Assembly: GCA_016714795.1 (NCBI GenBank)
Contig: JADKCA010000008.1
Location: 66,083 to 130,082, forward strand
DNA length: 64,000 bases
Source: Sphingomonadales bacterium
Lineage (GTDB): Bacteria > Pseudomonadota > Alphaproteobacteria > Sphingomonadales > Sphingomonadaceae
Direction: 5' to 3'
Shown in pieces: positions 16,892-43,517 of this stretch; position 1 is the stretch's first letter; each line of letters starts with the position of its first letter. Both the position numbers and the translations under genes were made by a program. The notes below the pieces were generated by a model that worked only from the letters and a program-made list of their open reading frames with translations, was not told the DNA's origin and ran no database searches.

Positions 16892-17047
16892 GCGGACTGG
16901 TCCGGCACAGAGCGGCGCTATCGGCAGTGCGCTTTGCGGTTCCTGCTCTTTGCGGCACATGCTATATGGGCCAAAATTGCTCTTTTGGCAGCCGACAAAC
17001 AGGGGATTTGATCATGGCTAAATGCGCCGGACGGCGCACCGGCGCGT

Positions 17048-17545: not shown

Positions 17546-17568
17546 AGGGTTTTCAATTGGAGGTCTAT

Positions 17569-18524: not shown

Positions 18525-18687
18525 TCCAATCCGCCATCCGCCAATCAGGGGTGCCAGGCCTTACGGGTCTGGTGCCCCTTTTTTGCCCGTTCGCACATCC
18601 GAAGGATCGGGTGGCGGGCAGGGCACCCAAAACCCAAACACACACTCTCGCAAGAATTCCAAGGATGAAGACCGGAGCTAGCCCGCC

Positions 18688-18835
18688 TCAAGGATGCGCG
18701 GTCCCCCCAATTTTTTCCTCCTCTGCGCTAACGCTCCGTTCCAGAGAAAATCGGCACCCCCGCGCCCCGCTGTCGCGGCCTTCGGTCCTTGACCCGGACC
18801 AGCTCCGATCTTCTCTGAAGAGACCTCTTCGATTT
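18688..18835 (+). promoter_or_regulatory. structured non-coding element B (homologue of element A)
   Basis: GCGGTCCCCCCAATTTT at 18698-18714 and AAAATCGGC at 18747-18755 are identical to element A. The inner stem is CTCTG/CAGAG (18721-18725 / 18742-18746). Confidence 0.5.
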
Positions 18836-18852
18836 TCAACAAGGAGGTTATC

Positions 18853-19161
18853 ATGTCAGCACTTGCCGTTCAGACCATCGCCGTTTTCAATCAGCCCGCT
18901 TATGACGCAGCCTATCGCACGGCATCGATCCGGGCCCAGCACAGCTTCTTCGACCAGCACATCGTCGAAGACGAGGACGCCGGTTTCATCGCCATCGACG
19001 AAGGCGATTATAACGGCCTGACACAGGAGCTCATCGACCGGATCGTCCACACCATCGCAGCGCAGATGGCAGATGATTTCGACCTTCCCGACTACGCCCG
19101 AGCCTCCCATATCGCCGCCGGTATCGATCTCGATTTCGACGCCGACGACTGCCCATTCTGA
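18853..19161 (+). CDS. small, strongly acidic protein ending in an SSB-tip-like peptide (DFDADDCPF)
   Basis: AAGGAGG lies before ATG 18853. 102 aa. My count is 16 Asp + 4 Glu versus 4 Arg and 0 Lys. A terminator follows. Confidence 0.55.
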   Translation: MSALAVQTIAVFNQPAYDAAYRTASIRAQHSFFDQHIVEDEDAGFIAIDEGDYNGLTQELIDRIVHTIAAQMADDFDLPDYARASHIAAGIDLDFDADDCPF

Positions 19162-19417: not shown

Positions 19418-19575
19418 CAAAAATGGCGGAAATACGTCAGTTTTGACGTTCGAAACTCCCGGCAGTTTGGGGTCTGATGAATGCTGTCTGGTCCCCAGAA
19501 ATGGCGGAATTTCGGGGACTCTGGAGGGCAGTTTTGATATAAATGCATGCCATATGGTCCCCAATCGGCTCTTGC
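19418..19575 (+). repeat. two tandem imperfect ~75-78-bp units at the 5' end of the first integrase gene (att/arm-site-like)
   Basis: AAATGGCGGAA at 19421 and 19499. CAGTTTTGA at 19438 and 19529. TGGTCCCCA at 19489 and 19555. Confidence 0.45.
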
Positions 19576-25800: not shown

Positions 25801-27767
25801 AAGTCCCGCGCGCTGATGTTCATCGCGCTCGACAAGCTCACAATCAGGATGTCAAACAAGCGATCATCGTCGTGCCTGAAAAGAGCATCGGCGGCAGCTT
25901 TGCCGATGAGCCGCTTTCAAAATTCGGCTTCTGGGCTGACTGGACGGTCAAGCCGCAATGGAATCTGTGCAACGCACCTGGCCCCGATGAAGAGCGCGTT
26001 GACCCCTCCAAGGTTCGCGCCGTGGGGCAGTTCCTCGCCAGCGATGACAAGGTGCTGGTTTGCACCCATGCGTCGTTTCGCTTCGCGGTGGAGCAACTTG
26101 GCATTGAGGCGTTCGACAATCGCCTGATCGCGGTGGACGAGTTCCACCACGTTTCCGCCAGTGCCGACAACAAGCTGGGCAGCCAGCTTGGCGATTTCAT
26201 CCACCGCGACAAGGTGCATCTTGTCGCCATGACAGGCAGCTATTTCCGGGGCGATGCCGTTCCCGTGTTGATGCCCGAGGATGAGGCGAAATTCGAGACT
26301 GTCACCTATACCTATTACGAACAGCTCAATGGCTATGAGCATCTGAAATCGCTCAACATCGGCTATTTTTTCTACACGGGTCGCTATCTGGGCGCGATTG
26401 AGGCCGTGCTTGATCCGTCGCGCAAAACCATTGTTCATATCCCTTCGGTCAATTCGCGCGAAAGCACAAAGGACAAGATCAAGGAAGTCGAAGAGATCAT
26501 GGAATATCTCGGCGATTGGAAGGGTGCCGATCCCGTCACCGGCTTCCACCTGGTCGAATTGCCCGCCGATGAAAACGGGAACGTCCGCACGATCAAGATT
26601 GCCGACCTTGTGGACGACAGCGATCAGGTGAAGCGCTCGAAGGTTCTGGCGGCTCTGAAAGACCCCGCGCACAAGAACAACCGCGACCATGTGGACATCA
26701 TCATCGCGCTCGGCATGGCGAAGGAGGGCTTTGACTGGATTTGGTGCGAACATGCGCTGACGGTCGGCTATCGCTCCAGCTTGACCGAGATCATTCAGAT
26801 CATCGGTCGTGCCACCCGCGATGCACCGGGCAAGGAAGTGGCGAGTTTCACCAATCTGATCGCGGAACCCGATGCGTCCGAAGCTGCCGTGGTCGATGCG
26901 ATCAACGATACGCTGAAAGCCATTGCGGCGAGCTTGCTCATGGAGCAGGTGCTTGCACCGCGTTTCAATTTTACCCCGAAGGATAACGGGCCGCTGCCCG
27001 ACTTCAAATATGAAGGTGGGTATCAGGAAGGGCAAACGAACGTCGGTTTCAACGAAGAACGCGGCCAGTTCCATTTCGAGATCAAGGGGCTTGTGACACC
27101 CAAGAGTCCCGAAGCAACCCGCATTTGCGCCGAAGATTTGAACGAAGTCATCACCGCGTTCGTGCAGGATAAGTCTGCTCTTGAGCGCGGTTTGTTCGAT
27201 GGTGCGCACGTTGGCGGCGAAACATTGGCGGAAGAACTGACCCAGCTCAAAATGGGCAAAATCGTGCGGGATCGTTACCCCGAATTATCGGGTGAAGATC
27301 AGGAGGCGGTGCGCCAGCACGCGGTTGCCGCGTTGAACCTGACCCAGAAGGCCAAGCAGCTTGCGGGCAGCGGCGATCCTGGAGCAGGCGACATTGATGA
27401 TGGCGAGGCGCGCTCCAATACCGCATTGATCGAGGGCGTTCGCAAATTCACGATTGAGGTGAAAGACCTCGACATTGACCTGATCGACCGGATCAATCCC
27501 TTTGAAGCGGCCTATTCCGTTCTCGCCAAGGCGATGAACGAAGGGACGTTGAAGCAGGTTGCCGCCGTGATCGGCAAGCGCAAAGTCAGCATTCCCTATG
27601 ACGAAGCCCGCGACCTGGCCGTGCGCGCTTTGCAGTGGAAAAAGGAACGCGGACGCGCGCCCGAGATCACGTCGCAAGATCCGTGGGAAAAGCGCCTTGC
27701 CGAAGGCGTTGCCGCCCTCGCGAAATTCCGCGCCCAGCAGGCAGCTCAAGAGTCTGCCAATGGTTGA
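22857..27767 (+). CDS. as-assembled 1636-codon ORF: MmeI/YeeA-type N6-adenine DNA methyltransferase (to ~25.6 kb) run together with the core of an SF2 (DExH) helicase (from ~25.84 kb)
   Basis: MTase: 'NGGLF', 'FDPACGSGNFLV' (motif I) and 'GNPPYAG' (motif IV). Helicase: 'AVDEFHH' and 'QIIGRATRD'. The helicase N-terminus with Walker A is in another frame (next feature). The true MTase 3' end is therefore uncertain, and a genuine fusion is doubtful. Confidence 0.75.
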   Translation: MNAVEIEEAVSELARKPFDRADFAYQFLAAFGNKETTIKRLRAAGGSNASDVPGGILQRNNIHLATCAAGEVDATLKALRDSPKTASAKAKFILATDGETLQAEDVTSDDPPIACEYAKFPDHFGFFLPLAGITTVKQIRESSFDIRATGRLNKLYVELLKDNPEWATAERRPDMNHFMARLIFCFFAEDTDIFNGTGLFTATTDQMSERDSSNTHDVISEMFRAMNTKIADRGDAKLPRWADVFPYVNGGLFSGSTEVPRFSKIARSYLINIGSLDWKKINPDIFGSMIQAVADDEERGALGMHYTSVPNILKVLNPLFLDDLRAQLEEAGDNGRKLLNLRNRMAKIRVFDPACGSGNFLVIAYKEMRAIEAVINQRRNEEERRSDIPLTNFRGIELRDFPAEIARLALIIAEYQCDVTYRGQQEALAELLPLDAQNWITCGNALRLDWLGICPPTGTGVKMQGDDLFNTPLDQAQIDFENEGGETYICGNPPYAGSNWQTIDQKEDLQRLFQQRKINWKQVDYIFGWFFKAAEFGTKTESSSAFVTTNSVNQGQIASIIWPPIFETGHEISFAHTSFKWANLASHNAGVTVSIVGISRNLTSARKLFSLADDGSTLLKLVNNINPYLIPAPNVFIEPSGESLGFSAEITDGCGALDGGNLVVTSDELAEMLTQKPSGIMEFIRPYTGSTEFIRGSLRWCVWIADEDRDNAATFPEIQRRIDATYQFRLKAGTRAQTAINRPHKFAWINQSQNEQIIVPKHFSERREYVTAGYLTNEYIVSNSATIVHNATLDIFSVISSKLHVVWVKAVAGRLREDIRYTPATCYNTFPVAQLTETDRAKLTRCAEDILLAREAHFPKTIAELYDPDDMPQNLRRAHEANDEVLERIYIGRRFKNDTERLEKLFELYTKMTQNTGKSSKPRKWQLDHDDIQTHPRSLISDRANRRIRQTQRNGYAPDAGTRLCQARRAISADQIAARIGQVPRADVHRARQAHNQDVKQAIIVVPEKSIGGSFADEPLSKFGFWADWTVKPQWNLCNAPGPDEERVDPSKVRAVGQFLASDDKVLVCTHASFRFAVEQLGIEAFDNRLIAVDEFHHVSASADNKLGSQLGDFIHRDKVHLVAMTGSYFRGDAVPVLMPEDEAKFETVTYTYYEQLNGYEHLKSLNIGYFFYTGRYLGAIEAVLDPSRKTIVHIPSVNSRESTKDKIKEVEEIMEYLGDWKGADPVTGFHLVELPADENGNVRTIKIADLVDDSDQVKRSKVLAALKDPAHKNNRDHVDIIIALGMAKEGFDWIWCEHALTVGYRSSLTEIIQIIGRATRDAPGKEVASFTNLIAEPDASEAAVVDAINDTLKAIAASLLMEQVLAPRFNFTPKDNGPLPDFKYEGGYQEGQTNVGFNEERGQFHFEIKGLVTPKSPEATRICAEDLNEVITAFVQDKSALERGLFDGAHVGGETLAEELTQLKMGKIVRDRYPELSGEDQEAVRQHAVAALNLTQKAKQLAGSGDPGAGDIDDGEARSNTALIEGVRKFTIEVKDLDIDLIDRINPFEAAYSVLAKAMNEGTLKQVAAVIGKRKVSIPYDEARDLAVRALQWKKERGRAPEITSQDPWEKRLAEGVAALAKFRAQQAAQESANG
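25642..25843 (+). CDS. helicase N-terminal segment encoded in the +1-offset frame (Walker A 'SPPASGKS')
   Basis: Track ORF 25636-26127 reads 'MTTSKP...MRQMQERAYAKRGEQYLLIKSPPASGKSRALMFIALDKL'. It then loses sense exactly where the long ORF frame gains helicase sense ('HNQDVKQAIIVVPEKSIGG'). A one-nucleotide gap at about 25839 (CTC-CAC read as CTCAC) would join them. Confidence 0.7.
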
Positions 27768-28974
27768 TCTGTCGGACGACGAATTGCTCGCAGAACTCGG
27801 CGTTAGCGTCGAGCAAAAGGCTGCACGCGCCTATACGCCGCAGCAGGAGCGGATCATCGCGGGCTTTGAGGACATTCTCAAATTCCACGATGAGCATGGC
27901 CGCGCGCCGCAGCACGGTGAGCAGCGCGACATATTCGAGCGGCTTTATGCAGTGAGGCTCGATCGCCTGCGTGAGCTGGAGGATTGCCGTTCGCTTTTGG
28001 CAGGCTTGGACAAGCACGGTTTGCTTGAGGCGAATACGGATGCCAGCCACATCGTTCCCGATGCGCTGGATGATGATGCGTTGCTTGCTGAACTAGGCAT
28101 TGATCCTGGCGGCGATGATGACATCACGCAGCTTCGCCATGTGCAAACACGCGAGGAACGGCAGGCCGCCGAAGAGATCGCCAACCGCGAACGCTGCATT
28201 GATTTTGCGAAATTTCAGCCGCTGTTTGCCGATGTGCAGCTCGAACTTGATTCCGGCGTTCGTAGCACCCGCCCTTTCGTAAAGGACGCCGGATTTCTGA
28301 AAGCCGACATCGGCGCGGGCCAATTTTTCATCCTGGGCGGTCAGACAGCCTATGTGGCTGAGGTTGGCGAGACCATTAAGGCCCCAAATGGCGAGTTCGA
28401 CGCTCGCTTAAGGGTCATCTATTCCAATGGGACGGAGAGCAACCTGTTGCGCCGCTCCCTGCAACGCGCGCTTTACAAGGATGATGCAGGGCGGCGCATT
28501 ACCGATCCAGCGGCGGGGCCGCTTTTCTCTGACAATGCGGACGAAGACGACACCGAAAGCGGGACGATCTATGTCTTGCGGAGCAAGTCCGACCATCCCC
28601 AGATCGCCCAGCACCGTGACCTGATCCACAAGATCGGCGTGACGGGTGGCAGTGTCACGACGCGCATTGCGGCAGCGGAGAACGATGCAACCTACCTGCT
28701 GGCCGGCGTCGAGATCATCGCCGAATACAAGCTGTTCAACATCAACCGGACGAAGTTGGAAAGGCTGATCCACCGATTTTTCGCTGACGCCGCATACGAC
28801 ATCCAAATTACTGATCGCTTCGGTAAGCCCGTCCGGCCCCGTGAATGGTTTCTCGTGCCGCTCCATGTGATCGACGAGGCTGTTCAGCGGATACGAGACG
28901 GCACGATTACGGAGTGCCGATACGATGCCAAGGCTGCTCGCTTGGTGCATACCTCCTTGGGAAAATTGTCATGA
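27760..28974 (+). CDS. GIY-YIG / T5orf172-type nuclease-domain protein
   Basis: ATG 27760 overlaps the helicase stop (ATGGTTGA). The C-terminal domain reads 'GTIYVLRS...IHKIGVTGGSVTTRI...NRTKLERLIHRFF...REWF'. Confidence 0.8.
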   Translation: MVDLSDDELLAELGVSVEQKAARAYTPQQERIIAGFEDILKFHDEHGRAPQHGEQRDIFERLYAVRLDRLRELEDCRSLLAGLDKHGLLEANTDASHIVPDALDDDALLAELGIDPGGDDDITQLRHVQTREERQAAEEIANRERCIDFAKFQPLFADVQLELDSGVRSTRPFVKDAGFLKADIGAGQFFILGGQTAYVAEVGETIKAPNGEFDARLRVIYSNGTESNLLRRSLQRALYKDDAGRRITDPAAGPLFSDNADEDDTESGTIYVLRSKSDHPQIAQHRDLIHKIGVTGGSVTTRIAAAENDATYLLAGVEIIAEYKLFNINRTKLERLIHRFFADAAYDIQITDRFGKPVRPREWFLVPLHVIDEAVQRIRDGTITECRYDAKAARLVHTSLGKLS

Positions 28975-30977
28975 GCAACGTCAATGTCCGTCGTTTGGTC
29001 GAGAATATCCGTTCTGGCACCAATATCTACACGCCCATTGTCGAACTGGTGGTAAATGCCATTCAGGCGATTGACGAGAAAAAGATCGCGAAGTTTGGAT
29101 TGGTCGAAATCGAGACCGTGCGTGATGGCCAATCTGACATGGTGGACAAGCTCGAATCTGTCGACGGCTTCAACGTCATCGACAACGGTATTGGCTTCAA
29201 CCGTACGCACCGAGACTCATTTGACACGCTCTATACCGAGCAAAAAATTGGCGATGGCGGCAAAGGATTCGGTCGCTTCACCTGCCTCAAATATTTTAGC
29301 AAGGTTGAGGTTAGCAGCGTATTTGAAGAAGGCGACGAATGCTTCCAGCGGTCCTTCAAAATGGGACTGGATAAGGAAATAATAGTAGCAGAGGCGATTG
29401 AGACCATCGAGCGGATCGGCACCGGCTCATTGGTCAAAATCTCAGAAATCAAATCGGTGAAATTCCCGGACAAAGGCCTTGAGATCATTGCTCGTGTCAT
29501 TGTCGAAAAGCTGCTGCCCTATTTTGTTGAAAGGGATGAGGCTAAAAAGTGCCCCCGCATCGTAATTCGGGAGGCTAAGAAGCCTGACACCAATATCGTG
29601 CTCAATGACTATCTGGGCAAAGCGGACAGCCAGATCGTTGAGATGCCTGTTGCCAACGGCAAATTTTCACTGTCCTCGCCCGATGGCCCCAAGGAATTCG
29701 AGGTCCGCGTTTTCAAATTCTACTCACCGCGGGAAAGCAAAAGCAAAATCAGTCTGGTTGCACATCGGCGTGAGGTGACGGAAACGACGCTGCAAACATA
29801 CATCCCGGAATTTGCTGAAGAGTTTTACGAGCCTGTGCCCGAAGGTCGGGACCGCAATTTTCTGATTAAGGCCTATGTGTTCGGCGATTACCTCAATGAT
29901 AACGTTTCGTTGGAAAGAGGCGAATTCCGCTTTCAGACCGAAAGCGATTTGTCGGGCGGGATCGCGCAAAAAGACATCGAATACAAAGCCGCCGAAATCG
30001 CCCAAGCCGCAGTAGGATCGGAGATCGCTGCACGCAAAGAGCGAAAGCAGCAGACCATCGAACAATACGTCGCTACGGAAGCGCCTTGGCATCGTTTGAC
30101 GATAACCCAAGCCGACCTGAGCGACCTACCTTATAAGCCTACTAAGCCACAAATCGAAGCGCATCTCCAAGCCAAGAAATTTGAGACCGAACTGCAAACT
30201 CGCACCCAGGTTGCGGCGCTTTTGGCGGACGATAGCCACGCCGACCTAAACGGTAAGGTCGAGGAACTGGTCAAACGGATTTCAGAAACTAGCAAGAGCG
30301 ACCTCATCCATTATGTCTCCATGCGGAAATGCGTGCTCGATATCTTCGAAAAATCCCTCGAACGGGACGAGCAAGGAAAATACAAATCCGAGGGTGAGGT
30401 ACACGACATTATCATGCAGCGGAAAAAGGATTCGGACGAGATCGATTGGGAGACCCACAATCTTTGGATGCTAGATGAACGCTTGAACTTTGCTGCCTAC
30501 GTCTCTTCCGAAAAGCCTATTAACGCGGGCAATGGAAGCCGCACTGACATCACCATTTTCGATAAGCGAGTTGCATTTCGTGGTGAGAATGAGGCGAGCA
30601 ACCCGATCACCATTTTCGAATTCAAAAAGCCGTCAAGAGATGACTTTGCCAATCCTTCATCCAAAGAAGATCCCGTCCAACAGATCATTCGATACGTGAA
30701 CCAAATCCGCGACGGTAATTTCAAAACCCCCAAGGGCCGCGAGATTCTGGTAAACGAAAACACCCCCTTTTACGGCTATGTCGTGTGTGAGCTGACGCAA
30801 AAGGTGAAGACTTGGCTGGATCGTGAAAAGAATTTCACGCCAATGCCTGACGGGCTGGGCTGGTTCACCTGGTATCCAAATAACCGCCTCTACATGGAGG
30901 TTTTGAGCTGGGATAAAATTTTGAAAGACGCTGAGATGCGCAACAAAGTTTTTTTCAACAAACTTGGACTTGAGTAA
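28971..30977 (+). CDS. GHKL (Hsp90/MutL/MORC-like) ATPase with C-terminal PD-(D/E)xK-like domain
   Basis: ATGA overlap with the upstream gene. 'ELVVNAIQA', 'DNGIGF' and 'GDGGKGFGRF'. The C-terminal part has 'RTDITIFD...ITIFEFKKP'. Visibly AT-richer than its neighbours. Confidence 0.75.
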   Translation: MSNVNVRRLVENIRSGTNIYTPIVELVVNAIQAIDEKKIAKFGLVEIETVRDGQSDMVDKLESVDGFNVIDNGIGFNRTHRDSFDTLYTEQKIGDGGKGFGRFTCLKYFSKVEVSSVFEEGDECFQRSFKMGLDKEIIVAEAIETIERIGTGSLVKISEIKSVKFPDKGLEIIARVIVEKLLPYFVERDEAKKCPRIVIREAKKPDTNIVLNDYLGKADSQIVEMPVANGKFSLSSPDGPKEFEVRVFKFYSPRESKSKISLVAHRREVTETTLQTYIPEFAEEFYEPVPEGRDRNFLIKAYVFGDYLNDNVSLERGEFRFQTESDLSGGIAQKDIEYKAAEIAQAAVGSEIAARKERKQQTIEQYVATEAPWHRLTITQADLSDLPYKPTKPQIEAHLQAKKFETELQTRTQVAALLADDSHADLNGKVEELVKRISETSKSDLIHYVSMRKCVLDIFEKSLERDEQGKYKSEGEVHDIIMQRKKDSDEIDWETHNLWMLDERLNFAAYVSSEKPINAGNGSRTDITIFDKRVAFRGENEASNPITIFEFKKPSRDDFANPSSKEDPVQQIIRYVNQIRDGNFKTPKGREILVNENTPFYGYVVCELTQKVKTWLDREKNFTPMPDGLGWFTWYPNNRLYMEVLSWDKILKDAEMRNKVFFNKLGLE

Positions 30978-31257: not shown

Positions 31258-33288
31258 TTAACCGTTGGCAATTCTACGGAACAAAGGGATCCACGGGTGA
31301 TTCGCCTTGCGCGACGCCGTATGAAGCAGCGGAAGGCTGTTGTTAGGCACCGTATTGGGCAGCACGAGCAGCAATGCCTGTCCGCCATAACCCAGCGGAT
31401 TGTCTGGATAGATGTTCGCGCCGATCTCGGTAGCGAGTGACTTTGCGCGATCGTATTCGTCATGCCCCGAAAAAACACCCGTGGCACCCGAGAAGGCAAA
31501 CAAACTGCTTGGTAGTACATCGCCGGTCCGAAAGTCCACATCGGGATATTCTAGCGATTTGAGTGTCTCGAGGACCCTACGTCGCCCATCCTCAGTTGCA
31601 AAGAGTGAACAGACCTCGACCCTCAGTTGGTAACGGGTGAGCAACTGGGCGTGACGTTCGACGAAGGCCTTCATCTTCTTCGAAAGTGTCCCTCCGGTGC
31701 CCACGATGTCATCGACGATCACGATCGCCTTGGGCGTTCCGTGCTTTGCCGCGAAGCGTTCGAACTCCTCCTCGAACGCGGCAGGCGAGAGGATGCCAAG
31801 CGTCTCGATTAGATTAGCCTCGGCGTAGTCCGAAGCGTATCGCTGTCCGCTCTTGCCCTCTCCGTCCACGTAGGTCAGTACGACGTCCGTTCGCTTCTCG
31901 GCGCGACTGCGGCGCGAGGGAACGCCGAGCACATCGCGTATGACCTGTCCCGCCTGCCTGAGCCGAACGAGGACCTCATCCTGACCGACGATCCGTACCG
32001 ACTGCAGAAGCTCGAATAGCACGCGCTGATCGCGGTTCCCCGGCCTCTGCTCAAGCCAGCGCCTCACGGTTTCGGGGCCGACCTGAGTCCCGCAATAGGG
32101 TTTCCAACGTTCGGTCAGCCCCACGATCTCGGCCGCTTGAACGTAAGCCTCGTCATCCAGCTTCTGCTGCAGACCGGCCAGCTCTGCCGACAATCCATCA
32201 TTCGCAAGTCGACTAACGCCGACCTCCAGCAGCCAGCGACGGAAGATTGGAAGAGCGACATCGAAGCCCGCGTCGGTCTCGACCAGTACACCGCGGTCCA
32301 CGAGGTTGTTCAGCACGGGTGCAAGCTCCACCTCGTCGATGGCGCTAGGGCCTCGGTGCGCCTGGATAGCTTGAAGAGTCGCCGGCTTCTCAGCCCGAAG
32401 ACATCTAGCTACGGCGGCCAGCGCGCGTCGCCTCTTGAGGATGACCGCCTCCCGATCCTCGACGGCGCTCGCAGTCCCATCCTCCCACAGGTGCATGAAG
32501 GCGTTCGTGTCCAGTGCCGAGACGTTTCTCGTGACCGCGCGTTCGACCTCCCGCGCGGTGATGTCCCCGTCGCGCTCGGCGACGGCTGCGGCAGCTACCT
32601 GCTTGCAGATGATCTTACTGAAATACGGATTGCCGTTAGTCATGTTGAACACAGCTGAGATGGCATCCGCATGCCAGGTGAGCACGTCCTCGGAGGGGCC
32701 CCTGATCATGCGCGTGAACTCATCGAACTCCTGACTGCGTGAGAAATAGGTCAGGTTCACCCGGTTGAACTTGTTCAGCCTTGCACCCTGACGTTCCATT
32801 ACGAACGGCATGTTCTCACCGCCGACCAACAAGAGACTGAAGTTCGTACTGGTGGTCAGAGCGCGAATGTTGCCAAAGAGCGTGACCGCCAAGTCGCCGT
32901 GAAGCCAGAGCGCCTCCGGCATCTCATCGAACTCGTCAATGAAGATCGCAAACCGTCGCGCCGGATTGCGGTCGCGCGCGACGTCGAGAAGATCCATCAG
33001 CGGCGCGAGGCTGCCGTCGTATTCCGCGCTCGCGGGAGCTTCGCCGTCGATGCCCTCGAGAACGATGCGTTCCATCGCTCGGCCGAGCTGACTCATCGAG
33101 CGCCTCGGATCCTCATGCGCGACGCGGCCCCAAAGAATTTCACCCGTCACAAGCTCGCCTTCATGGTCCTCGGCGCGCGCCTCGGCCATTGCCGTCCGCG
33201 CGAGGGACGTCTTGCCGACTCTCTTCTGGCCCGTGACGTAGGATGGCTCCATCGGACGTTGAAGAAACCGCGCGACCAGCGTCTCCAC
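31258..33288 (-). CDS. AAA/STAND-like ATPase - winged-helix region - C-terminal phosphoribosyltransferase (PRTase) domain
   Basis: Walker A 'GQKRVGKTS', Walker B 'AIFIDEFDE' and PRPP-loop-like 'IVIVDDIVGTGGTL'. The same frame reads on upstream of GTG 33288 as '...WNPYSTEPAEGPGFYGRKEQ', the typical pre-Walker-A motif, with no start codon. It is therefore probably fused to the next ORF. Confidence 0.75.
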   Translation of the reverse strand: METLVARFLQRPMEPSYVTGQKRVGKTSLARTAMAEARAEDHEGELVTGEILWGRVAHEDPRRSMSQLGRAMERIVLEGIDGEAPASAEYDGSLAPLMDLLDVARDRNPARRFAIFIDEFDEMPEALWLHGDLAVTLFGNIRALTTSTNFSLLLVGGENMPFVMERQGARLNKFNRVNLTYFSRSQEFDEFTRMIRGPSEDVLTWHADAISAVFNMTNGNPYFSKIICKQVAAAAVAERDGDITAREVERAVTRNVSALDTNAFMHLWEDGTASAVEDREAVILKRRRALAAVARCLRAEKPATLQAIQAHRGPSAIDEVELAPVLNNLVDRGVLVETDAGFDVALPIFRRWLLEVGVSRLANDGLSAELAGLQQKLDDEAYVQAAEIVGLTERWKPYCGTQVGPETVRRWLEQRPGNRDQRVLFELLQSVRIVGQDEVLVRLRQAGQVIRDVLGVPSRRSRAEKRTDVVLTYVDGEGKSGQRYASDYAEANLIETLGILSPAAFEEEFERFAAKHGTPKAIVIVDDIVGTGGTLSKKMKAFVERHAQLLTRYQLRVEVCSLFATEDGRRRVLETLKSLEYPDVDFRTGDVLPSSLFAFSGATGVFSGHDEYDRAKSLATEIGANIYPDNPLGYGGQALLLVLPNTVPNNSLPLLHTASRKANHPWIPLFRRIANG

Positions 33289-34456
33289 CTGTTCCTTGCG
33301 CCCATAAAAGCCCGGCCCCTCGGCCGGTTCGGTGCTGTACGGGTTCCAGAACTTCCAGTTTCGACCAATCCACGTCTGAACGCTGGGCGAGCATCCGAAC
33401 GCCGAATATCTCCTCCTTGCCTTTAACTTCTCCCGCTTCGCGCCAGCGGACCTCTACGTCGAAGTCGATCGCATCGCAGGACGTTGCCACAATGACGTCC
33501 ACGGCAGCTCCGAATTCCCCGGGAGCTATCTCGCCCAATATCTGCTCTTGATCGTCGACAAGCACCGACGGGTCGGAGCACGATACGCGATACACCACAT
33601 CCATTGCGGGGCCCGGACCTTCGTTGCGGAAAGGTATTACCACCCGTAGCTCGCGTTCCGCCTCGTGGAGCGGATACCGTTTCTGCAGCGCCAAGCTTTC
33701 ACGCTCGGCACGGACCACACGTGCCGCGAGCCGCCCCTTCATAGCACCAAGGAAGACGTTCAGAGCCTGCTCGGCATTCTCGAGCAAGCCACGCAGCGCA
33801 CTCGTCAGGAAGGATGGTCGACGATCCGCCAGCTCCGCCCCTCTTGCGATCTCCTGACGCGAGGCCTCGAGATCAGATTCGAAGCCGGCATCCATCTGAA
33901 GCACACGAGCGAGCGAAGAGGTGAGGTGGTCGATAACCTCCGCGACCTCGCCGACATGCCACGGCCTGCAGTAGGTGCGCACCTGAGAATGTTGCAGGGC
34001 ACCGGTCAGCCGACCCTTCGCACCTACGAGCGTATTCAGGCTGGCATAGGGCGTGCCGAGCGGCTCTAGTATCTTCGTTATACTGCTATGCGCGCCCCGG
34101 AGTTGCTCGAGCTTCTCGTAGTTCTGAGTCTTCGGCTGCACCCCGACGAACTGACATAGCTTCGGCAGGGCAGCCTCGCATAAAGATACGACGCTACGAG
34201 CCAACGCGTCCTGCCGTCCGTCAGAGAATACCCCGGCCTCGAGCGCGCGAAGAACCACGGCCGCAGCAAGATCGCGTCCGGCGGGAGCTTGGGAGACCGC
34301 GATCACTGCATCGGCAGTCGACCCCTCGACGGGAACATCCGCCGTGCTGAACAGGTAACGACGCAACGCGAGCCGTGCCCCGTCAAAATCCTGCGCTGCG
34401 ATCGCGACCTCAAATGCAGTAAGATGGTCTTCGAGAAGACTGGAGCTTTCGTTCAT
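33161..34456 (-). CDS. N-terminal region ORF of the ATPase-PRTase gene (helical part + beta-rich segment); frame break near 33341-33343 as assembled
   Basis: ATG 34456 with GAGG upstream. It makes sense up to '...DVDWSKLEVLE', then becomes Gly/Arg nonsense where the ATPase frame gains sense. The break lies at a C-run (GGG on the plus strand). Confidence 0.6.
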   Translation of the reverse strand: MNESSSLLEDHLTAFEVAIAAQDFDGARLALRRYLFSTADVPVEGSTADAVIAVSQAPAGRDLAAAVVLRALEAGVFSDGRQDALARSVVSLCEAALPKLCQFVGVQPKTQNYEKLEQLRGAHSSITKILEPLGTPYASLNTLVGAKGRLTGALQHSQVRTYCRPWHVGEVAEVIDHLTSSLARVLQMDAGFESDLEASRQEIARGAELADRRPSFLTSALRGLLENAEQALNVFLGAMKGRLAARVVRAERESLALQKRYPLHEAERELRVVIPFRNEGPGPAMDVVYRVSCSDPSVLVDDQEQILGEIAPGEFGAAVDVIVATSCDAIDFDVEVRWREAGEVKGKEEIFGVRMLAQRSDVDWSKLEVLEPVQHRTGRGAGLLWAQGTGGDAGRAVSSTSDGAILRHGPEESRQDVPRADGNGRGARRGP

Positions 34457-36396: not shown

Positions 36397-37496
36397 ATGA
36401 AGTTCATCCACTCCGCTGACTGGCAACTCGGCAAACCTTACGGCCGCTTCGATCCCGATGTCCGAGGGGCGCTGACGGAGGCCCGCTTCGATGCAATCGA
36501 CGAACTTGGAAGACTTGCTGCGGAACACGGCGCGCAGCACGTCCTCGTAGCCGGCGATATCTTTGATACCGACGGTCCCGAAGATCGCACGATCGTGCAG
36601 GCGATTTCGCGCATGGATCGGCACGACTGCCGCTGGTGGCTCCTTCCGGGGAACCACGATTTCGCGCGCAACGGAGGCTTGTGGGACCGTGTTCGGCGGC
36701 GAGCCAGCGATAAAATCGTCATCCTCTCGGAACCCAAGCCCCACGAGATAGCGGATAGGATATGGCTGCGCCCGCACCGCTGATCCATAGACATAATCTG
36801 GAGGATCCAACAACCCTCTTCGATTCCATGGAAACCCCGGGCGCCCGGCTACGCATTGGCGTCGCACACGGATCGATCAGGGACTTTGGATCGCGCGGGG
36901 AGACCAAGAACCAGATCGACCCGGAACGCGCCAGGCTATCGAACCTCGACTATCTTGCGCTCGGCGACTGGCACGGTGCCCTCAAGGTTGATGCGCGAAC
37001 ATGGTATTCGGGTACACCGGAGACTGACCGCTTCCAGCGCGACGAGCCAGGCAGCGCACTCGTCGTCGATCTCCAGCCCGAGCATGCACCTACGGTGACG
37101 CCGATCCGAACGGGTCGCTTCCAATGGCTCACGCGCGATTGGACGGTCAACGACGAGGCAGCTTTCCACGCCGAATGCCACCAGCTACTTGCCGGTGTCG
37201 ACGCTCCAAACACGCTTCTGCAGCTAGCCCTTGCTGGCATTACCAGCCTCAGCGAACGGGTCGCGATGCTTGGGCGGCTCGAAGGCGATCTCGGTCATCG
37301 TCTGCGGTATCTGGCTGTGCGGGCGGATGATCTGGTCGGCCGGCCACGCGAGGAAGACCTCGCGACGATCGCCGTCGAAGGAATGCTCGGGACCGCTGCA
37401 GCCAAACTCAGCACTAAGATCGCTGAAGGCGGTCCGAATGGTGCCCTCGCCAAGCGAGCACTCGAGCGATTGTTCATCGAGTATAGCCGGGAGTGA
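36397..37496 (+). CDS. SbcD/Mre11-like metallophosphoesterase; frame break near 36767 as assembled
   Basis: 'MKFIHSADWQLG', 'AGDIFD', 'LPGNHD' and 'VAHGSI' are calcineurin-like phosphoesterase motifs. The track splits it into 36397-36783 and 36762-37496. The sense passes from '...EIADRIWL' to 'APAPLIHRHNLEDPTT'. Confidence 0.7.
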
Positions 37497-37502: not shown

Positions 37503-40136
37503 ATGAGCCTCGTCATCCGGCAAATCGCGGTCGACGGCTTCCGAAAATTTCGAACGCCCTTCGCGATTGAAAATCTATCGGACGGGTTGAACATCGTCAT
37601 CGAGCCGAATGAAACCGGCAAATCCACGTTGCTGGAGGCGCTTCGTGCAGCCTTTTTTGTCCGCCACAACACGCGCAACCAGCTCGCCCAGTCCTTCGCA
37701 CCATATGGCGAGGCAGTGGCCCCTGAGATCAAGGTGACCTTCGAAATCGACGGCTCTCCCTGGTCGCTGACAAAACGCTTCCTCAGAAATCCCTCGCTTG
37801 AGATCTCGAGTCCGCAGGGTCGGGCTCAAGGCGATGACGCGGAAGCACAGCTCAACGTACTGCTGGGCTCGGTCCGTGACACCAGTCGCGGCGGTGATGT
37901 TTCTTCATACGGAGCATTGGGGCTATTGTGGGTCGCGCAGACTGAGGCACTTGCCGTCTCGGGGCCTGGACAGATTGTTCGCGACTCGATCGCATCCACC
38001 CTCGAAGCCGAGGTTGGATCGATCATGGGGGGAGAGCCTTATCGGCGGGTGCGTCAACGGATAGACGCCCAGTATGAGCTTTATTGGTCGCCCAGCGGCC
38101 AGAAGCGCGGCCGGCAGAATGATGCGCGAGAAAGGTTAGCGGCTGCAGACGCGGCAGCACGCGAGGCCAACGAACGGCTCGCGGCACTGGAGCAGAGCTT
38201 TTCCGACCTCGACGCCGCACGTGGCCGGCTCAAGATCGTCCAGCGAGAGATCGCGGATGAGACCGATACGCAAGCTCGCAAAGACCTGGTCGACTCCCTT
38301 GAGATCGCCCGTGCGGCGGCGCAAATCCTCTCAACCCGGAAAGCAGAACAGGCGGCGGCCGCTGCGAAACTGAAAGGTCTGGAAGACCTGAAATCTCGCC
38401 ACTCGTCGGCGACTAGCTCCCGCGATAACGCCACGACTGCCGTGGAGATAGCTCGGGCAAAGCGTGCGGAGCTCAGCGAGGCGCTCTCGGCCGCCAAGAC
38501 CAAGATCGTGTCCGCGCGTGAGGATCTCGAGGCGGCGCGCAGTGAGCGAAAAGACGCCCGAAGAGCGCTTGAAGATGGTGAACAGGCTGTCCGCCTCAGC
38601 CGTCGCCAAGCCGGAACCGCGGCCGCTCGCCGTCGGCATGAAGAATTGCTGAAGCTCGAGCAGTTGCTTCGCGATACAAAGGCCCTGGCCGCAACCTCCA
38701 TACCGACCGAGACGGTCGAAATGCTTGAGGCGAATGACCGCGCGGTGAGCCAAGCTCAGGCCGTCCTCGACGCAGGCGCAACACGTCTGGCGCTGTCTGG
38801 CACCATCAACGGGGTCACAATCGACGGCGAGCCGATGCCAGCTGGCGAGCGCACCATCACGCGTGCCGCCCAAATCGTGATCGGAGAGGCCCAGTTGATC
38901 GTCAGCCCGCCGGCCGCGGCCGCGAGCGCCGAAGAGACCCTCGCCGTCGCAATCCGCAAACGGACGGCTGCGCTCGACGAGCTTCAGATAGCCGATCTTG
39001 CAGCCGCTCGTTCGCGCAACCAGACGGCGCGCGACGCCACCGGCGAACTGCGCACGCTTGCTGCGCGCATCGAGGCAGTCACACCCGCCGATGAGACACT
39101 TCAGATCGCGGCTGGCGCGGAGGCGCTAAAACTGTTTGTTGCGGGGCTCGAGCCGGAGGCAAATGAGGACGATAATGCGCTTCCCGATCTAACGGCCCTG
39201 GCAGAGGCGCTTGAGGCGGCAGATACGAAGCTCGCGCGCGCTGAAGGGACTCAAGACAGTGCCATAGCGGCACTCCGGCGTTCCGAGGAAGCTGATGCGC
39301 CGCTCGCGTTAGTCGAAGCCGGCGCGATGAGCGATCTCGCCAACGCGACGGCCCTTCTCCAAGAGATCGAGGCTCGCCCGGAATGGGCATCGCTTGATGT
39401 GGACCTCGACCAGGCGCGCGAAACGGCAGCCGAGGCGGCCGTCCGCCTGGAGGAGGCCGAGCGAAACGCATCGGCGCATGATGTCGCCGCGATCAATCGC
39501 AAGATCGAGGTAATCGACGCGCGCGTCCGGGTAGCCGCTGAAACGCGCACCAGACTGGAGACCGAGATTGCCCGACTTGAGGGCACCATTGAGAGCGAGG
39601 GCGGCCTTGGCTTAGCTGATCGCGCAGCGGCGGCTCAAGAGGAAGTGGAGGCGGCGAACGCAGCGTTTCAGCGCATTACCGAAGAGGCAGATACGCTCAA
39701 GCTGCTCCGCGACACTCTGGAAAGCGCACGAAACGAAACCGCAGCCAAGTTCGTTGGCCCCGTGGCGAAACGCGCAAAGCGATATATCTCACAGCTACTG
39801 CCAGAATGCGACCTCTCCTTCGCCGAAGATCTGACGCTTGCGAGGGTTAGCCGGACTGGCGTGGACGAAAGCTGCGCCAACCTCTCTCGTGGCACCCAGG
39901 AGCAGCTCGCCATTCTGACTAGGATCGCGTTCGCGGACCTGCTTCTTGAGCAGGGGAAACCCGTTTCGCTGATCCTCGACGACCCGCTAGTCTATTCCGA
40001 CGATGGCCGTCTCGACACCATGATCGAAATTCTCACCGAAGCCGCAACACGTATGCAGATCATATTGTTGACTTGCCGAGACCGAGCGTTCCGGCACGTC
40101 CCGGGCAACAGGATCCGGGTTGGCACTGGGACCTAG
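37503..40136 (+). CDS. SbcC/Rad50-like (YhaN-type) coiled-coil ABC ATPase
   Basis: Walker A 'EPNETGKST', a very long Ala/Glu/Arg-rich coiled coil, signature-like 'LSRGTQEQL', and Walker B 'SLILDDPLVYSD'. Confidence 0.8.
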   Translation: MSLVIRQIAVDGFRKFRTPFAIENLSDGLNIVIEPNETGKSTLLEALRAAFFVRHNTRNQLAQSFAPYGEAVAPEIKVTFEIDGSPWSLTKRFLRNPSLEISSPQGRAQGDDAEAQLNVLLGSVRDTSRGGDVSSYGALGLLWVAQTEALAVSGPGQIVRDSIASTLEAEVGSIMGGEPYRRVRQRIDAQYELYWSPSGQKRGRQNDARERLAAADAAAREANERLAALEQSFSDLDAARGRLKIVQREIADETDTQARKDLVDSLEIARAAAQILSTRKAEQAAAAAKLKGLEDLKSRHSSATSSRDNATTAVEIARAKRAELSEALSAAKTKIVSAREDLEAARSERKDARRALEDGEQAVRLSRRQAGTAAARRRHEELLKLEQLLRDTKALAATSIPTETVEMLEANDRAVSQAQAVLDAGATRLALSGTINGVTIDGEPMPAGERTITRAAQIVIGEAQLIVSPPAAAASAEETLAVAIRKRTAALDELQIADLAAARSRNQTARDATGELRTLAARIEAVTPADETLQIAAGAEALKLFVAGLEPEANEDDNALPDLTALAEALEAADTKLARAEGTQDSAIAALRRSEEADAPLALVEAGAMSDLANATALLQEIEARPEWASLDVDLDQARETAAEAAVRLEEAERNASAHDVAAINRKIEVIDARVRVAAETRTRLETEIARLEGTIESEGGLGLADRAAAAQEEVEAANAAFQRITEEADTLKLLRDTLESARNETAAKFVGPVAKRAKRYISQLLPECDLSFAEDLTLARVSRTGVDESCANLSRGTQEQLAILTRIAFADLLLEQGKPVSLILDDPLVYSDDGRLDTMIEILTEAATRMQIILLTCRDRAFRHVPGNRIRVGTGT

Positions 40137-40365: not shown

Positions 40366-42671
40366 TTGATCAGCAAGATCGAGATCGCGGACGTGGCGAC
40401 TTATCCGGCCGCCGGCGAGCGGTTGACGGACCTGAAGAAGGTTAACTACCTGTTCGGCCACAATGGCTGCGGCAAGACGACGATTTCGCGCGCGATCCAC
40501 GACCCATCCATCTGCACGGGATATACCGTCAATTGGCGGGATGGACGCGAGCTTGCGACGCTGGTCTTTAATCGAGATTTCGCCGATGCTAGCTTCGGGG
40601 ATCAAATGCAGGGCATCTTTACGCTCGGCGAGGACTCTACCGAGCAGTGGCGGAGATCGAGCGCCTTACGGCCGAGATTGCTGGACCAGATAGCGACATA
40701 GTCAACCTGCGCCGGAATCTTGTTGGAGAAGACAGCACCGGCGGGCGCGAGGCTGAACTCGTGGCGGCGCGCGTGGCGCTGATCGAGGCATGCTGGAAGT
40801 CGCAGGTCGACCACAAGGACGCGTTCATAGGCGCATTCACCGGCTTCCGTGGCAAGAAGGAGGACTTCTGCACGAAGCTGCTGGCCGAGGCAGAGGGTAA
40901 CACTTCGGAGTTGAAGACGTTGGACGCGCTGACGGCGGAGGCGACGACCGTCTTCCAAGATGCCACGACGCCGGAGATCGCGATCGCACCTATTTCCTTC
41001 GACCGATTCGCGAGTCTGGAAGCTTCCTCGATCCTTGCCCGCAGCATCGTGGGCCGCGACGACGTAGTTGTGGCCGCGCTCATCGGCCGTCTTGGCAACA
41101 GCGATTGGGTTAAGCAGGGCGTTGGATATCTGACCGCGGCGGACGGCCCGTGCCCTTTTTGCCAGCAACCAGCGCCTGCCGGATTGCTCGACGATCTCAA
41201 CGCGTTCTTCGACGAGCAATATGAGGCTGATCTCGCCTCGATCGACCTTCTGGCGGCGTCGTATCAGCAGGCGGCCAATGCCGTCGTTGAACGCATTGAC
41301 GCCCTCGTAGCAGCGCCACATCGGCTTTTGGACATGGCAGCCCTAGGCGAGCGCTCCACGGCTTTGAAGACCGCTTTCGAACTCAATATCGAACGCATCA
41401 CGGCGAAACGGAAAGAGCCAAGTGGTGTGGTTGAGCTCGACACTACGGCCGAGCTGACGACTGCTATCACCGCCCTGATCGCGGCAACGAACGCGGCGAC
41501 CGAGCAGTATAACGCCACCATCCGCAATCTCGCGAGCGCGAAGTCGGCTCTGACCGCGCATATATGGAGGTTCGTCGTCGAGGAACGACGCACGGATATC
41601 GACACCTACGAGACCACGGCCGGAACCCTTCAGCGCGCGATCGACGGAATGCGTCGCAGCATCGACGACAAGACCACGCGGCGAGCGGACCTTATACGCC
41701 AGCGTTCCGCGATTGAGGAGACGATCACCAGCGTCCGCCCGACGGTAGATTCCATCAATCGAATCCTAGGCCAGTATGGCTTCACCAATTTTCGCCTCGA
41801 AGTGGCTGGTGAGCGCAGCAACATGTATCGCATCGTGCGACTGGACGGGAGCGAGGCGGCGCACTCCTTGAGCGAGGGTGAGCGTTCTTTCATCACCTTC
41901 CTCTACTTCTATCACCAGCTAGCTGGCAGCACCTCGAGTACAGGAACCGCAGTCGAGAAAGTTGTGGTATTCGACGATCCAGTCTCGAGCCTCGACGCCG
42001 ACGTCCTGTTCGTGGTCAGCGCGCTGATCCGGAAGGTCGTATCCGACGTGCGGGAGAATGTAGGCAACGTCCGCCAGGTGTTCGTGCTCACGCACAACAT
42101 CTACTTTCACAAGGAGGTCAGTTTCGACCGAGATCGCCGCAGCAACGCGCGGTCGTTCGAGTCCTTCTGGATCGTTCGGAAACGCGAAAACGTGTCCTCG
42201 CTCACCCGCTACGATTACAACCCGGTCAAGACCTCATACGAGCTGCTGTGGGATGACGTGCGCAGTTCGGATCGACCGAACCTCACGATCCAAAACACGA
42301 TGCGCCGAATCGTCGAGAACTATCTGACCGTCCTGGGTGGGCTGAAGCAGGACGAGATCGTCGCACGTTTTGAAGGTCGCGACGCCCAGATCTGCGCCTC
42401 GCTGTTCTCGTGGATCAACGACGGATCACACAGCTCGCACGACGATATCTACGTAGCCGTCGATGACAATGCGGTGCAAGGCTACCTACGCGTGTTCAGA
42501 GAAGTGTTCGAGCGCACGGGACACGGCGCTCACTACCGAATGATGATGCGCATAAGCGATGACGACCCGGAAGATGGTGCGGTTGCTGCGGCACCTGTGG
42601 ACGCAGTTGCGATTCCTCCCGGTGCATCTGCTCCGCCCGCCTACGCTCCCGGGCAGCCAGCGGCTGAATAG
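40366..42671 (+). CDS. RloC/PrrC-like ABC ATPase (AAA_13-type) with CxxC hook and C-terminal anticodon-nuclease-like region; frame break near 40647 as assembled
   Basis: TTG 40366 follows GGGGGGG. Walker A 'GHNGCGKTT', 'GPCPFCQQ' within the coiled coil, 'LSEGERSF', and Walker B 'VVVFDDPVSSLD'. The C-terminal part has 'MRRIVENY...INDGSHSSH' (R-x3-E...H spacing like PrrC). The track splits it into 40366-40701 and 40647-42671. Confidence 0.7.
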
Positions 42672-42674
42672 GCT

Positions 42675-43517
42675 GTGGTCGGTCCGGTCTCGATCGACAG
42701 GGCGTGGTGGGAGCATCTGACTCCAACCTCGATGCACAAGCTGCGCGGGGAGGTCGAACGGCGGCTACGCGCTTGGTGCGAATTGGACTACGGTAAATTC
42801 TGGCTCAGCAGCGCGCGGACGCCTGGTGGCGTGATCCGGATTAATGCTGGCGACGCCATCCCGGATTTCCACGTGGTCGTGATGCGCAACGGCTTGAAGT
42901 TCGTCGCGCCGCAGAAGCGCATGCGCGCGGGGCACCGGAGCGTGTCGATCGGTACGGACGAATATAGGTCCGGTAAGGCCCAACAAACCGGCGAGCTCAT
43001 CCTATCGCCCGTGATCCGTCTCGACCTCGTGACCGACCCGGCGCTCATGGCCGCGGCGCGCAGGTTCGACATCAACATGCCGTCTGCGCAAGTGACCGAA
43101 CCGAGCATCCTGTTCTCAGCACCTGCGCACATCCTAATCGCGCCGAATGGCTGGCCAAAAAGGTCGTTCGTCCTCTACCAGCATATCTTCGGCGAGGGCG
43201 GCTCCTATCCCGTCGATGGTTACTTCTACGTCGGCATCACGACGCGGAGCTGGAAGACTCGCTGGACCGAGCATCGTCGCGCGATGCGAAAGGGCAGCAA
43301 CCTGCTGTTCCACCGCAAGCTACGTGAGGAATTGGAGTCCAAGCGAGTGACCTACATCCACCACAAGGTTATGGCCGTCACGACCGACGTCGAGGCGCTT
43401 TACGAAGCGGAGGAAGCACTGGTGCGCGGTCATTGGGGGGACAGCAGGCGGCTCAACATGATCCCGGGCGGTCGAAGCGGCTATCGCCACCTTCCGAATG
43501 CTGGCTTGGGCGACTAA
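42675..43517 (+). CDS. GIY-YIG nuclease-domain protein with unknown N-terminal domain
   Basis: It starts 3 nt after the RloC-like stop. 'FVLYQHIF...GYFYVGITTRSWKTRWTEHRR...ALYEAEEALV...LNMIPGG' follows the GIY-YIG pattern. Confidence 0.6.
   Translation: MVGPVSIDRAWWEHLTPTSMHKLRGEVERRLRAWCELDYGKFWLSSARTPGGVIRINAGDAIPDFHVVVMRNGLKFVAPQKRMRAGHRSVSIGTDEYRSGKAQQTGELILSPVIRLDLVTDPALMAAARRFDINMPSAQVTEPSILFSAPAHILIAPNGWPKRSFVLYQHIFGEGGSYPVDGYFYVGITTRSWKTRWTEHRRAMRKGSNLLFHRKLREELESKRVTYIHHKVMAVTTDVEALYEAEEALVRGHWGDSRRLNMIPGGRSGYRHLPNAGLGD

Follow-up and report, generated by a model that had tools for sequence, protein, structure and literature searches.

The 64,000-nucleotide stretch of Sphingomonadales DNA analysed here (hereafter the window; assembly GCA_016714795.1, contig JADKCA010000008.1, positions 66,083 to 130,082, with all coordinates below counted from its first letter) carries a disrupted minus-strand gene at 31258..34456 that now reads as two overlapping open reading frames (ORFs) and that, once one extra base is removed, comprises 1065 codons plus a stop. 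Its product joins an N-terminal helical and immunoglobulin (Ig)-like region to a P-loop nucleoside triphosphatase (NTPase), a winged helix and a C-terminal phosphoribosyltransferase (PRTase)-like domain. We consider it rather probable that this is an NTPase-gated PRTase abortive-infection protein, that is, a single-protein defence system resembling receptors of nucleotide-binding leucine-rich repeat (NLR) type. More tentatively, and with confidence a little short of even, we propose that it represents an undescribed class of NLR-like receptors of inverted polarity, in which the N-domain would recognise an invader and an assembly like those of Orc proteins and of signal transduction ATPases with numerous domains (STAND) would activate a C-terminal retron-type PRTase.

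The upstream of the two ORFs (33161–34456, minus strand) encodes 431 residues from an ATG start, and the downstream one (31258–33288, minus strand) encodes 676 residues, with a GTG as its listed start. In the six-frame translation, the downstream frame remains open for ~60 codons 5′ of that GTG, with no start codon there (…WNPYSTEPAEGPGFYGRKEQVETLVARFLQ…), and the upstream ORF ends in an out-of-frame, low-complexity tail of 65 residues (…EPVQHRTGRGAGLLWAQGTGGDAGRAVSS…). A search with a provisional fusion of the two returned, as best homologue, an intact protein of 1065 residues at 96% amino acid identity (P0001, from locus L001); a MAFFT DNA alignment of the window gene (3199 nt) with the P0001 gene contains 165 substitutions and exactly one indel. 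This sole gap in 3199 alignment columns is an extra G in the window copy (minus-strand AAACTGGAAG vs AAACTGAAG in the orthologue), corresponding to the plus-strand CC at 33356..33357, where one C is extra. The repaired protein is free of internal stops, differs from P0001 at 36 residues and reads …DVDWSKLKFWNPYSTEPAEG… across the restored junction. The two ORFs are one gene broken by one extra base.

An initial annotation, made from the letters of the window, had already proposed a single gene split by a 1-nt change, on the basis of sequence motifs and of the open, startless frame 5′ of the GTG, all of which we find in the sequence. One gene and one indel relative to P0001 bear out that proposal; its placement of the change in the GGG run at 33341–33343 does not hold, in that the DNA alignment puts the only indel at 33356/33357, 13–16 nt from that run. 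Likewise, the frames do not join at "...LEVLE|", as had been supposed, and the protein is 1065 rather than ~1100 residues long. Relative to the orthologue, dN/dS for the gene as a whole is 0.087, with 0.11 on the upstream side of the lesion and 0.07 on the downstream side; the low ratio on either side means that purifying selection acted on both halves until very recently. Either a mutation arose here not long ago or the extra base is an error.

To describe the architecture, we used an AlphaFold2 (AF2) model of the intact orthologue built from a 64-sequence alignment (mean predicted local distance difference test score, pLDDT, 87; predicted template-modelling score, pTM, 0.66), with residue invariance judged across 64 sequences; all parts of the gene are given on the minus strand. 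Pfam, PADLOC, AlphaFold and Foldseek together show the order of modules that the initial annotation had read from the translation, in which an unknown N-domain is followed by a STAND/AAA+-like NTPase, then by a winged helix and finally by a C-terminal PRTase. At the level of sequence, chance is excluded as an explanation of the motifs described below, because the search with the provisional fusion gave 79 homologues (E down to 0, nearly all full-length) and the motif residues are invariant.

The C-terminal PRTase assignment stands up to profile matching: Pfam PF24390 (PRTase-CE) is matched along its entire length (profile 1–253 of 253) by residues 797–1061 (31273–32067) with a score of 134.7 bits (cut-off 27; E = 6.7e-39), and nearly all homologues carry a precomputed match to the same family. 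Five PADLOC models of PRTase_III-A, the effector of type III-A retrons, match residues 791–1063 (E 2.8e-18 to 4.6e-7). NCBIfam models of housekeeping PRTases reach E values of at least 7e-4 and cover the phosphoribosyl pyrophosphate (PRPP) loop only, and Pfam Pribosyltran likewise spans the PRPP loop with 22.2 bits (cut-off 26.3). Other comparisons gave little: NCBIfam DS32_1 is matched faintly at E = 0.23, no PADLOC ShosT or PsyrT model is matched at E ≤ 1, and the family profile, searched against PDB sequences, found weak PRTase-loop matches only, the best of them to the PRTase-like TT1426 (1wd5, E = 0.003).

In the model, the PRTase-like catalytic core (residues 858–1065, 31261..31884), delimited by the Pfam and PADLOC matches and by invariant residues, follows a helical linker (residues 753–857, 31885..32199), the second half of which already lies inside the PRTase-CE span. 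Strands alternate with helices across residues 858–1015, as in a Rossmann-like core, and the alternating β/α domain as a whole spans residues 858–1061. The PRPP loop, IVIVDDIVGTGGTL, occupies residues 911–924 (31687–31728); the type I PRTase loop pattern, in which four hydrophobic and two acidic residues lead into a small-residue T/G loop, is present as AIVIVDDIVGTGGT at residues 910–923, with Thr920 conserved in at least 90% of the sequences and Asp915, Asp916 and Gly921 invariant. Further downstream, a G-x14-PNN motif (31330–31392) is present as G1022-x14-P1037-N-N-S-L-P, with Pro1037 and Asn1038 invariant; the final proline sits one position later than in Gx14PNNxP, the form reported as distinctive for retron PRTase-like proteins (PMC12746101). 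Judged by sequence, we take this domain to be the effector and to belong to the clade of type III-A retron toxic effectors.

The central module opens with the P-loop NTPase core and its helical lid (residues 383–660, 32476..33309). It contains an F-x-G-R motif (residues 383–386, within FYGRKEQ at residues 383–389), a Walker A motif, GQKRVGKTS (residues 409–417, 33205–33231), a Walker B motif, FIDEFDE (residues 505–511, 32926–32946), and, in the lid, a GNPxF motif (NGNPYF, 32620–32637), which we take to be the GxP motif of STAND proteins. Residues Gly385 and Arg386, Gly409, Gln410, Lys411, Arg412, Gly414, Lys415 and Ser417, Asp507, Glu508 and Asp510, and Gly608 of the GNPxF motif are invariant, and Pro610 and Tyr611 are at least 90% conserved. 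A winged helix of three helices and a β-hairpin in the AF2 model (residues 661–752, 32200..32475) completes the unit of nucleotide-binding domain, lid and winged helix (NBD–lid–WH), such that the entire STAND layout (Walker A, Walker B, helical lid with GNPxF, winged helix) is present.

Residues 380–548 are matched near threshold by the Pfam families AAA_16, nSTAND1, AAA_22 and ATPase_2, and relatives exceed the cut-offs (AAA_16, 37.8 bits in P0226; nSTAND1, 28.8 in P0130; ATPase_2, 39.4 in P0222). Foldseek against the PDB returned Orc1/Cdc6, the archaeal PAB2304 (2qen, target-normalised TM 0.65), NLRP9 and RuvB, with E values of ~1e-7 to 5e-9; the alignments to Orc1/Cdc6 chains, covering AAA+ plus winged helix, span ~380–430 columns. 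As modelled, the central module is the NBD–lid–WH unit common to Orc/Cdc6-type AAA+ and STAND NTPases, the two not being separable here. By analogy with these proteins, we take it to be a nucleotide-dependent switch and oligomerisation module.

The N-terminal region comprises an all-helical domain (residues 1–240, 33737..34456; AF2 pLDDT ~92), which is the most variable part of the protein and its putative recognition domain, followed by a seven-stranded Ig-like β-sandwich (residues 247–357, 33386..33718) with a conserved KRYPLHE...VPFRNxGPGxAxDV signature. Mean pairwise identity is 28% in the helical part vs 52% in the NTPase core. Modelled alone, the N-terminal 360 residues reach a pLDDT of 91.7; Foldseek against the PDB and BFVD gave no specific fold match for the N-domain, and the sandwich alone matches generic Ig-like, PapD-like or RhoGDI-like folds with a target-normalised TM of at most 0.5. 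The invariant residues of the N-domain (Gln111, Gly280, Gly313, Trp338, Gln358 and Trp364) form no obvious catalytic set. Two distant members of ~1310 residues (P0078 and P0079) differ only in the greater length of their N-terminal helical region.

An N-domain profile was also searched against 1.84 billion representatives (clusters at 50% identity), matching 840 clusters, 507 of them at E ≤ 1e-10. In the best 150 of these 840 matches, the domain always starts at the N-terminus and the complete proteins (1060–1083 residues) have the same architecture; the ten proteins of intermediate length that we scanned are truncations and carry no alternative effector. No swapping of effectors was seen in these 150. 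From its rapid divergence and its lack of an enzymatic signature, we take the helical plus Ig-like domain to be the sensor.

The 79 matches to the provisional fusion are nearly all single proteins of 1030–1100 residues, and a scan of GTDB at one genome per species with a degenerate pattern yielded 166 relatives. These are sparsely and patchily distributed over Alpha-, Beta- and Gammaproteobacteria, Acidobacteriota, Chloroflexota, Cyanobacteria, Planctomycetota, Bacillota-like lineages, Poribacteria, Omnitrophota and others. Disrupted members are common: 7 of the 85 loci fetched hold copies split at differing positions (L011, L014, L024, L048, L051, L057 and L076, the last with an internal segment inverted), and C-terminal relics of 340–390 residues adjoin insertion sequence (IS) elements (L086–L088). 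The recurrence of split copies and of IS-flanked relics suggests that the gene is costly or frequently inactivated; frequent decay is as expected for a costly gene. Proteins consisting of the PRTase alone were considered as a two-gene form and rejected, being truncated relics beside IS elements.

No gene family accompanies the target in an all-vs-all comparison of the ORFs of the 85 loci and the window. The largest clusters of neighbours are antisense shadow ORFs within the gene itself, followed by an unannotated family of ~410 residues found in seven sources, one of which is the window; the relatives' 140 nearest neighbours are spread over 125 Pfam families, none of which occurs more than three times. 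The gene is a single-gene unit, as the initial annotation had anticipated: homologues are single ORFs and there is no conserved neighbour. That annotation had further seen no reverse transcriptase (RT) or DprA-like partner nearby, and we agree: the Pfam-annotated neighbours include neither, the genes annotated from 15.7 to 58.7 kb contain no RT domain, and Rfam matches no family anywhere in the window. A promoter and terminator scan gave nothing above shuffled expectation.

Several relatives lie among mobile and defence genes. In Mesorhizobium, the gene lies inside an integrative conjugative element (ICE) and directly adjoins a Lamassu pair (Cap4 nuclease plus LmuB). The Notoacmeibacter marinus relative (L003, NBYO01000001.1) is flanked to one side by resolvase, TIR/ThsB-like, Nmad2 and SLOG genes and to the other by a relaxase gene; the upstream cluster (1–9700 of that locus) comprises a thymidylate-synthase-like protein, Nmad2, a ThsB-like TIR protein, a second TIR protein, LD_cluster2 (SLOG), an N6/N4 methyltransferase and a resolvase, and resembles a defence island carried by a mobilisable element. 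On a metagenomic conjugative element, a relative is flanked by ArdC and ParB on one side and by two DndB genes, GHKL and PIN on the other. The closest homologue (L001) adjoins a WYL regulator and an RNase H-like/superfamily 1 helicase protein, and elsewhere the neighbours include MzaC/Z1, HamB, PifA, IetS, a Type III restriction endonuclease, BilD, C5 methyltransferases, transposases and integrases.

Among described systems, the closest in its effector is the type III-A retron (Retron-Eco11; PMC7736814; PMC12746101), with which the protein shares the PRTase_III-A match, the PRPP loop, the G-x14-PNN motif and a winged helix in the same polypeptide, and whose output it would be expected to share, namely abortive infection through a toxic PRTase and the loss of PRPP. 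In Retron-Eco11, activation of the PRTase lowers PRPP, and a mutant of the PRPP motif loses defence (PMC12746101). Unlike the retron, the window gene comes with no RT, non-coding RNA or multicopy single-stranded DNA (msDNA), judging by the genes annotated from 15.7 to 58.7 kb, by Rfam and by the lack of a conserved neighbour in the 85 loci; control would be exerted in cis by an N-domain and NTPase of ~790 residues rather than by an RT–msDNA complex; and the winged helix lies upstream of the PRTase as part of the NTPase module, with PNNSLP in place of PNNxP.

With Avs/AVAST, bNACHT and the prokaryotic STAND systems, as the main text of a 2026 survey presents them (PMC13581612), the protein has in common its large single chain with a P-loop NTPase, lid and winged-helix switch, its pairing of a variable presumed sensor with an enzymatic death effector, its carriage as defence or mobile cargo and its patchy distribution. 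It differs from Avs in that the effector is C-terminal and the presumed sensor N-terminal, in the absence of TPR or WD40 repeats and in having no PADLOC Avs match; the sensor would be a helical plus Ig-like domain of ~360 residues rather than the large TPR or WD40 array of Avs and STAND sensors. Its NTPase is no closer to NACHT or NB-ARC than to Orc1/Cdc6 and the archaeal ATPase family PF01637. The main text of the same survey does not mention a PRTase effector, although one of its 589 clades could be this family (PMC13581612).

An NTPase fused to a C-terminal PRTase has a precedent in PsyrTA/RqlHI: toxicity of RqlH/PsyrT needs the PRPP pocket of the C-terminal PRTase and is restrained by the protein's own helicase domain (PMC4670107). 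That NTPase is a superfamily 2 helicase, whereas the one here is STAND/AAA+-like. ShosT, in which PRTase activity is coupled to that of a pyrophosphatase and which perturbs purine metabolism (PMC11961720), shows that a defence PRTase can act in this way. Both PsyrTA/RqlHI and ShosTA are two-gene toxin–antitoxin systems with a DprA-like antitoxin, unlike the present gene, which has no such partner and no match to their hidden Markov models. A PRTase domain is likewise essential for the anti-phage activity of Ophion, through OpnC (bioRxiv 10.1101/2025.09.30.679545), and of DS-32 (DefensePredictor); these systems (radical SAM, PHP and PRTase in Ophion, NADAR and PRTase in DS-32) are both multi-gene and lack an NTPase fusion.

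We found no description in the literature of a STAND/AAA+–PRTase fusion or of the N-domain, the supplements of the STAND survey lying outside that search, and no mention of 'PRTase-CE'; nor does the June 2026 NCBIfam set, which includes the DefensePredictor systems, hold a model for the family. The initial annotation had known of no described system with a PRTase effector on a large NTPase with this N-terminal region; this stands as far as the STAND/AAA+ fusion is concerned, for which no paper was found, but it overlooked RqlH/PsyrT as a precedent for an NTPase with a C-terminal PRTase toxin. The family is widespread and so far uncharacterised, and by analogy it most likely works like an Avs/NLR-type receptor with a retron-type PRTase payload while being a member of neither group.

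We infer the defence role from genomic context and domain homology, and likewise the sensing end, activation by oligomerisation and PRPP as substrate. In the sequence of events that we envisage, a cue from a phage or other invader would bind the variable N-domain; binding would release autoinhibition and permit ATP-dependent assembly of the NTPase module; assembly would bring PRTase domains together in an active form (type I PRTases generally act as dimers); and the active PRTase would consume or hydrolyse PRPP, or otherwise corrupt the nucleotide pool, such that host and phage are both stopped.

Several observations weigh against an NLR-like abortive-infection protein. The PRTase fold can serve as a PRPP-sensing regulatory domain, as in Bacillus subtilis PurR. 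The window protein itself falls below the Pfam cut-offs for the NTPase families (AAA_16, 30.9 vs 32.6 bits, E 4.7e-7; nSTAND1, 21.9 vs 27.1; ATPase_2, 17.8 vs 33.2), Orc1/Cdc6 and RuvB rank with NLRs among its best structural matches, and no anti-phage model of PADLOC or NCBIfam covers the NTPase or the N-domain, the only PADLOC match in the NTPase region being a faint one to PDC-S27 (E = 0.008). The polarity, with a C-terminal effector and a presumed N-terminal sensor, is the reverse of that in canonical Avs proteins. No member was found by megablast and tblastn in the plasmids of PLSDB (72,556 records) or the phages of INPHARED; the neighbourhood picture is qualitative, and some of the neighbours are housekeeping genes (Hsp70, enolase, ribonucleotide reductase). 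The window copy is, moreover, frameshifted. Finally, PRPP depletion in Retron-Eco11 amounts to only ~50% (PMC12746101), and for that reason the toxic chemistry of the PRTase clade is unsettled.

The window gene is cargo of an ICE, situated between a Type IIG restriction-modification (R-M) enzyme and a candidate PDC-S06 gene; the features given with coordinates in this paragraph and the next, the three ORFs left of the integrases aside, are on the plus strand. Two tandem tyrosine integrase genes (19443–21931) occupy the left part of the element and mark its only clear boundary. The initial annotation had described the target as convergent with an R-M-like module inside an integrase-bounded island, and the annotation of the window agrees, with the left boundary alone being clear: direct repeats of att type bounding the island were sought and only short, chance-level repeats found, and no tRNA gene was found. 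To the right of the integrases, the segment 22857–30977, in which GC drops to 0.50–0.54, includes an MmeI-like Type IIG R-M enzyme of 1636 residues (PADLOC 1.5e-276, residues 5–915), the ~700-residue C-terminal extension of which is unannotated save for a weak PMBR repeat. This is followed by a T5orf172/MUG113 protein (27598–28974) and by a 710-residue protein without Pfam or PADLOC match (28845–30977); together these genes may form an R-M or BREX-like module of several genes and of an unusual kind. The 710-residue protein is one immediate neighbour of the target gene, and a single-stranded DNA-binding protein (SSB) gene is the other.

On the far side of the target, a split metallophosphoesterase gene (36397–36783 and 36762–37496) matches positions 1–72 of the 191 of the Metallophos profile on its first ORF; the frameshift lies near 36755–36765, and the other frame continues ...APAPLIHRHNLEDPTTLFD...GVAHGSIRDF. 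Together with an SMC/RecF-like ATPase of 877 residues (37503–40136; weak similarity to LmuB, GajA and mad3), it may form an SbcCD-like or defence pair. An AAA_13 protein of 674 residues within 40647–43517 is the PDC-S06 candidate (PADLOC 2.6e-225, with weaker similarity to PrrC and LmuB) and, by its sequence, another candidate defence gene of the same ICE. A 280-residue ORF without matches follows it, as do the genes for the TrwB coupling protein and TrwC relaxase. A DUF1173 gene at 50676–51395 is truncated (profile 1–171 of 386), and from 51.7 kb onwards SDR, sulfotransferase and dehydrogenase genes, all intact, take over. To the immediate left of the integrases, a SLOG-family protein related to YspA/cpYpsA (17976–18524; PF10686, 6.4e-23) lies among three ORFs without Pfam match (15731–16960, 17557–18210 and 18521–19021).

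Whether the window copy is broken in the organism or only in the assembly bears on how it is read. We lean slightly towards a real mutation, in which case the copy is probably non-functional; if the extra base is a sequencing error, the gene would be intact and functional, a serious contender to which we give somewhat less than even weight. The lesion is the only one in 3.2 kb, with no other stops or indels; purifying selection has been strong on both halves; and the second frameshifted gene 3 kb away (Metallophos, ~36760) could reflect indel-prone reads. Set against this, the extra base falls in a 2-nt run and not in a long homopolymer, eight metabolic genes at 51.7–58.7 kb have near-full-length Pfam coverage and so betray no general indel problem, the breakage seen so far (target, Metallophos and truncated DUF1173) lies inside the mobile element, and genuine disruption or truncation is common among other members of the family. 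It is hardly credible, by comparison, that the split form works as two proteins or is decoded by programmed frameshifting. An AAGGA does sit within a few bases of the GTG at 33288, on its upstream side, and split copies recur in other genomes; yet this AAGGA simply belongs to the conserved codons for GRKEQ, a fragment begun at the GTG would be missing the invariant F-x-G-R (Gly385 and Arg386), and in other genomes the ORFs with a PRTase alone are truncated relics with IS elements at their flanks. We reject both programmed frameshifting and a two-gene form of natural origin on account of these relics, of the variation of break points between genomes and of the closest relative, which is unbroken at this site.

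Two further readings accept an intact protein and assign it another role. It could be a nucleotide-sensing regulator, with a DNA-binding winged helix, a PRTase-like domain sensing PRPP or nucleotides and an NTPase of MalT/LAL type. The NTPase does resemble AAA_16 (the MalT/LAL type), a winged helix is present, PRTase folds act as ligand sensors in PurR and PyrR, and some relatives sit among metabolic genes (P0077, for example, beside a nucleoside hydrolase and purine nucleoside phosphorylase, PNP). We nevertheless regard it as improbable, given that there is no conserved neighbouring operon to control, that distribution is patchy and linked to mobile elements with frequent pseudogenes, that the PRTase is closest to retron toxic effectors and not to PurR- or PyrR-like or housekeeping PRTases, and that the winged helix is integral to the NBD–lid–WH module of Orc/Cdc6- and STAND-type NTPases. 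Slightly less remote, though still unlikely, is a selfish module of conjugative elements serving addiction or competition between them, by exclusion of rivals or post-segregational killing. The window copy and several relatives are ICE or conjugative cargo close to type IV secretion, relaxase, ArdC or ParB genes, and PRTases of invasive elements have been proposed to act at DNA entry against rivals (PMC5512222). There is, however, no cognate antitoxin or partner gene, many copies are chromosomal with no conjugation genes nearby, and none occurs in the plasmid records. This alternative overlaps mechanistically with an NTPase-gated abortive-infection protein, in that the machine would be the same and the trigger alone would differ.

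In this genome, the gene is either a pseudogene of recent origin or marred by a sequencing error, and the ICE that carries it is decaying; the interest lies in the family that it reveals. No curated model names this family, with the consequence that annotation pipelines label its members 'ATP-binding protein' or 'phosphoribosyltransferase-like protein'. PRTase-like effectors recur in type III-A retrons, ShosTA/PsyrTA, Ophion and DS-32, and their toxic chemistry and activation are only partly understood; a version contained in a single polypeptide would offer a simpler, tractable system for studying both. If the reading as an NLR-like receptor of inverted polarity is correct, it would be the first PRTase toxin gated by nucleotide-dependent oligomerisation and not by an RT–msDNA complex or an antitoxin, and STAND-type immune receptors would gain an effector and a sensor fold that are new to them, arranged in the opposite order.

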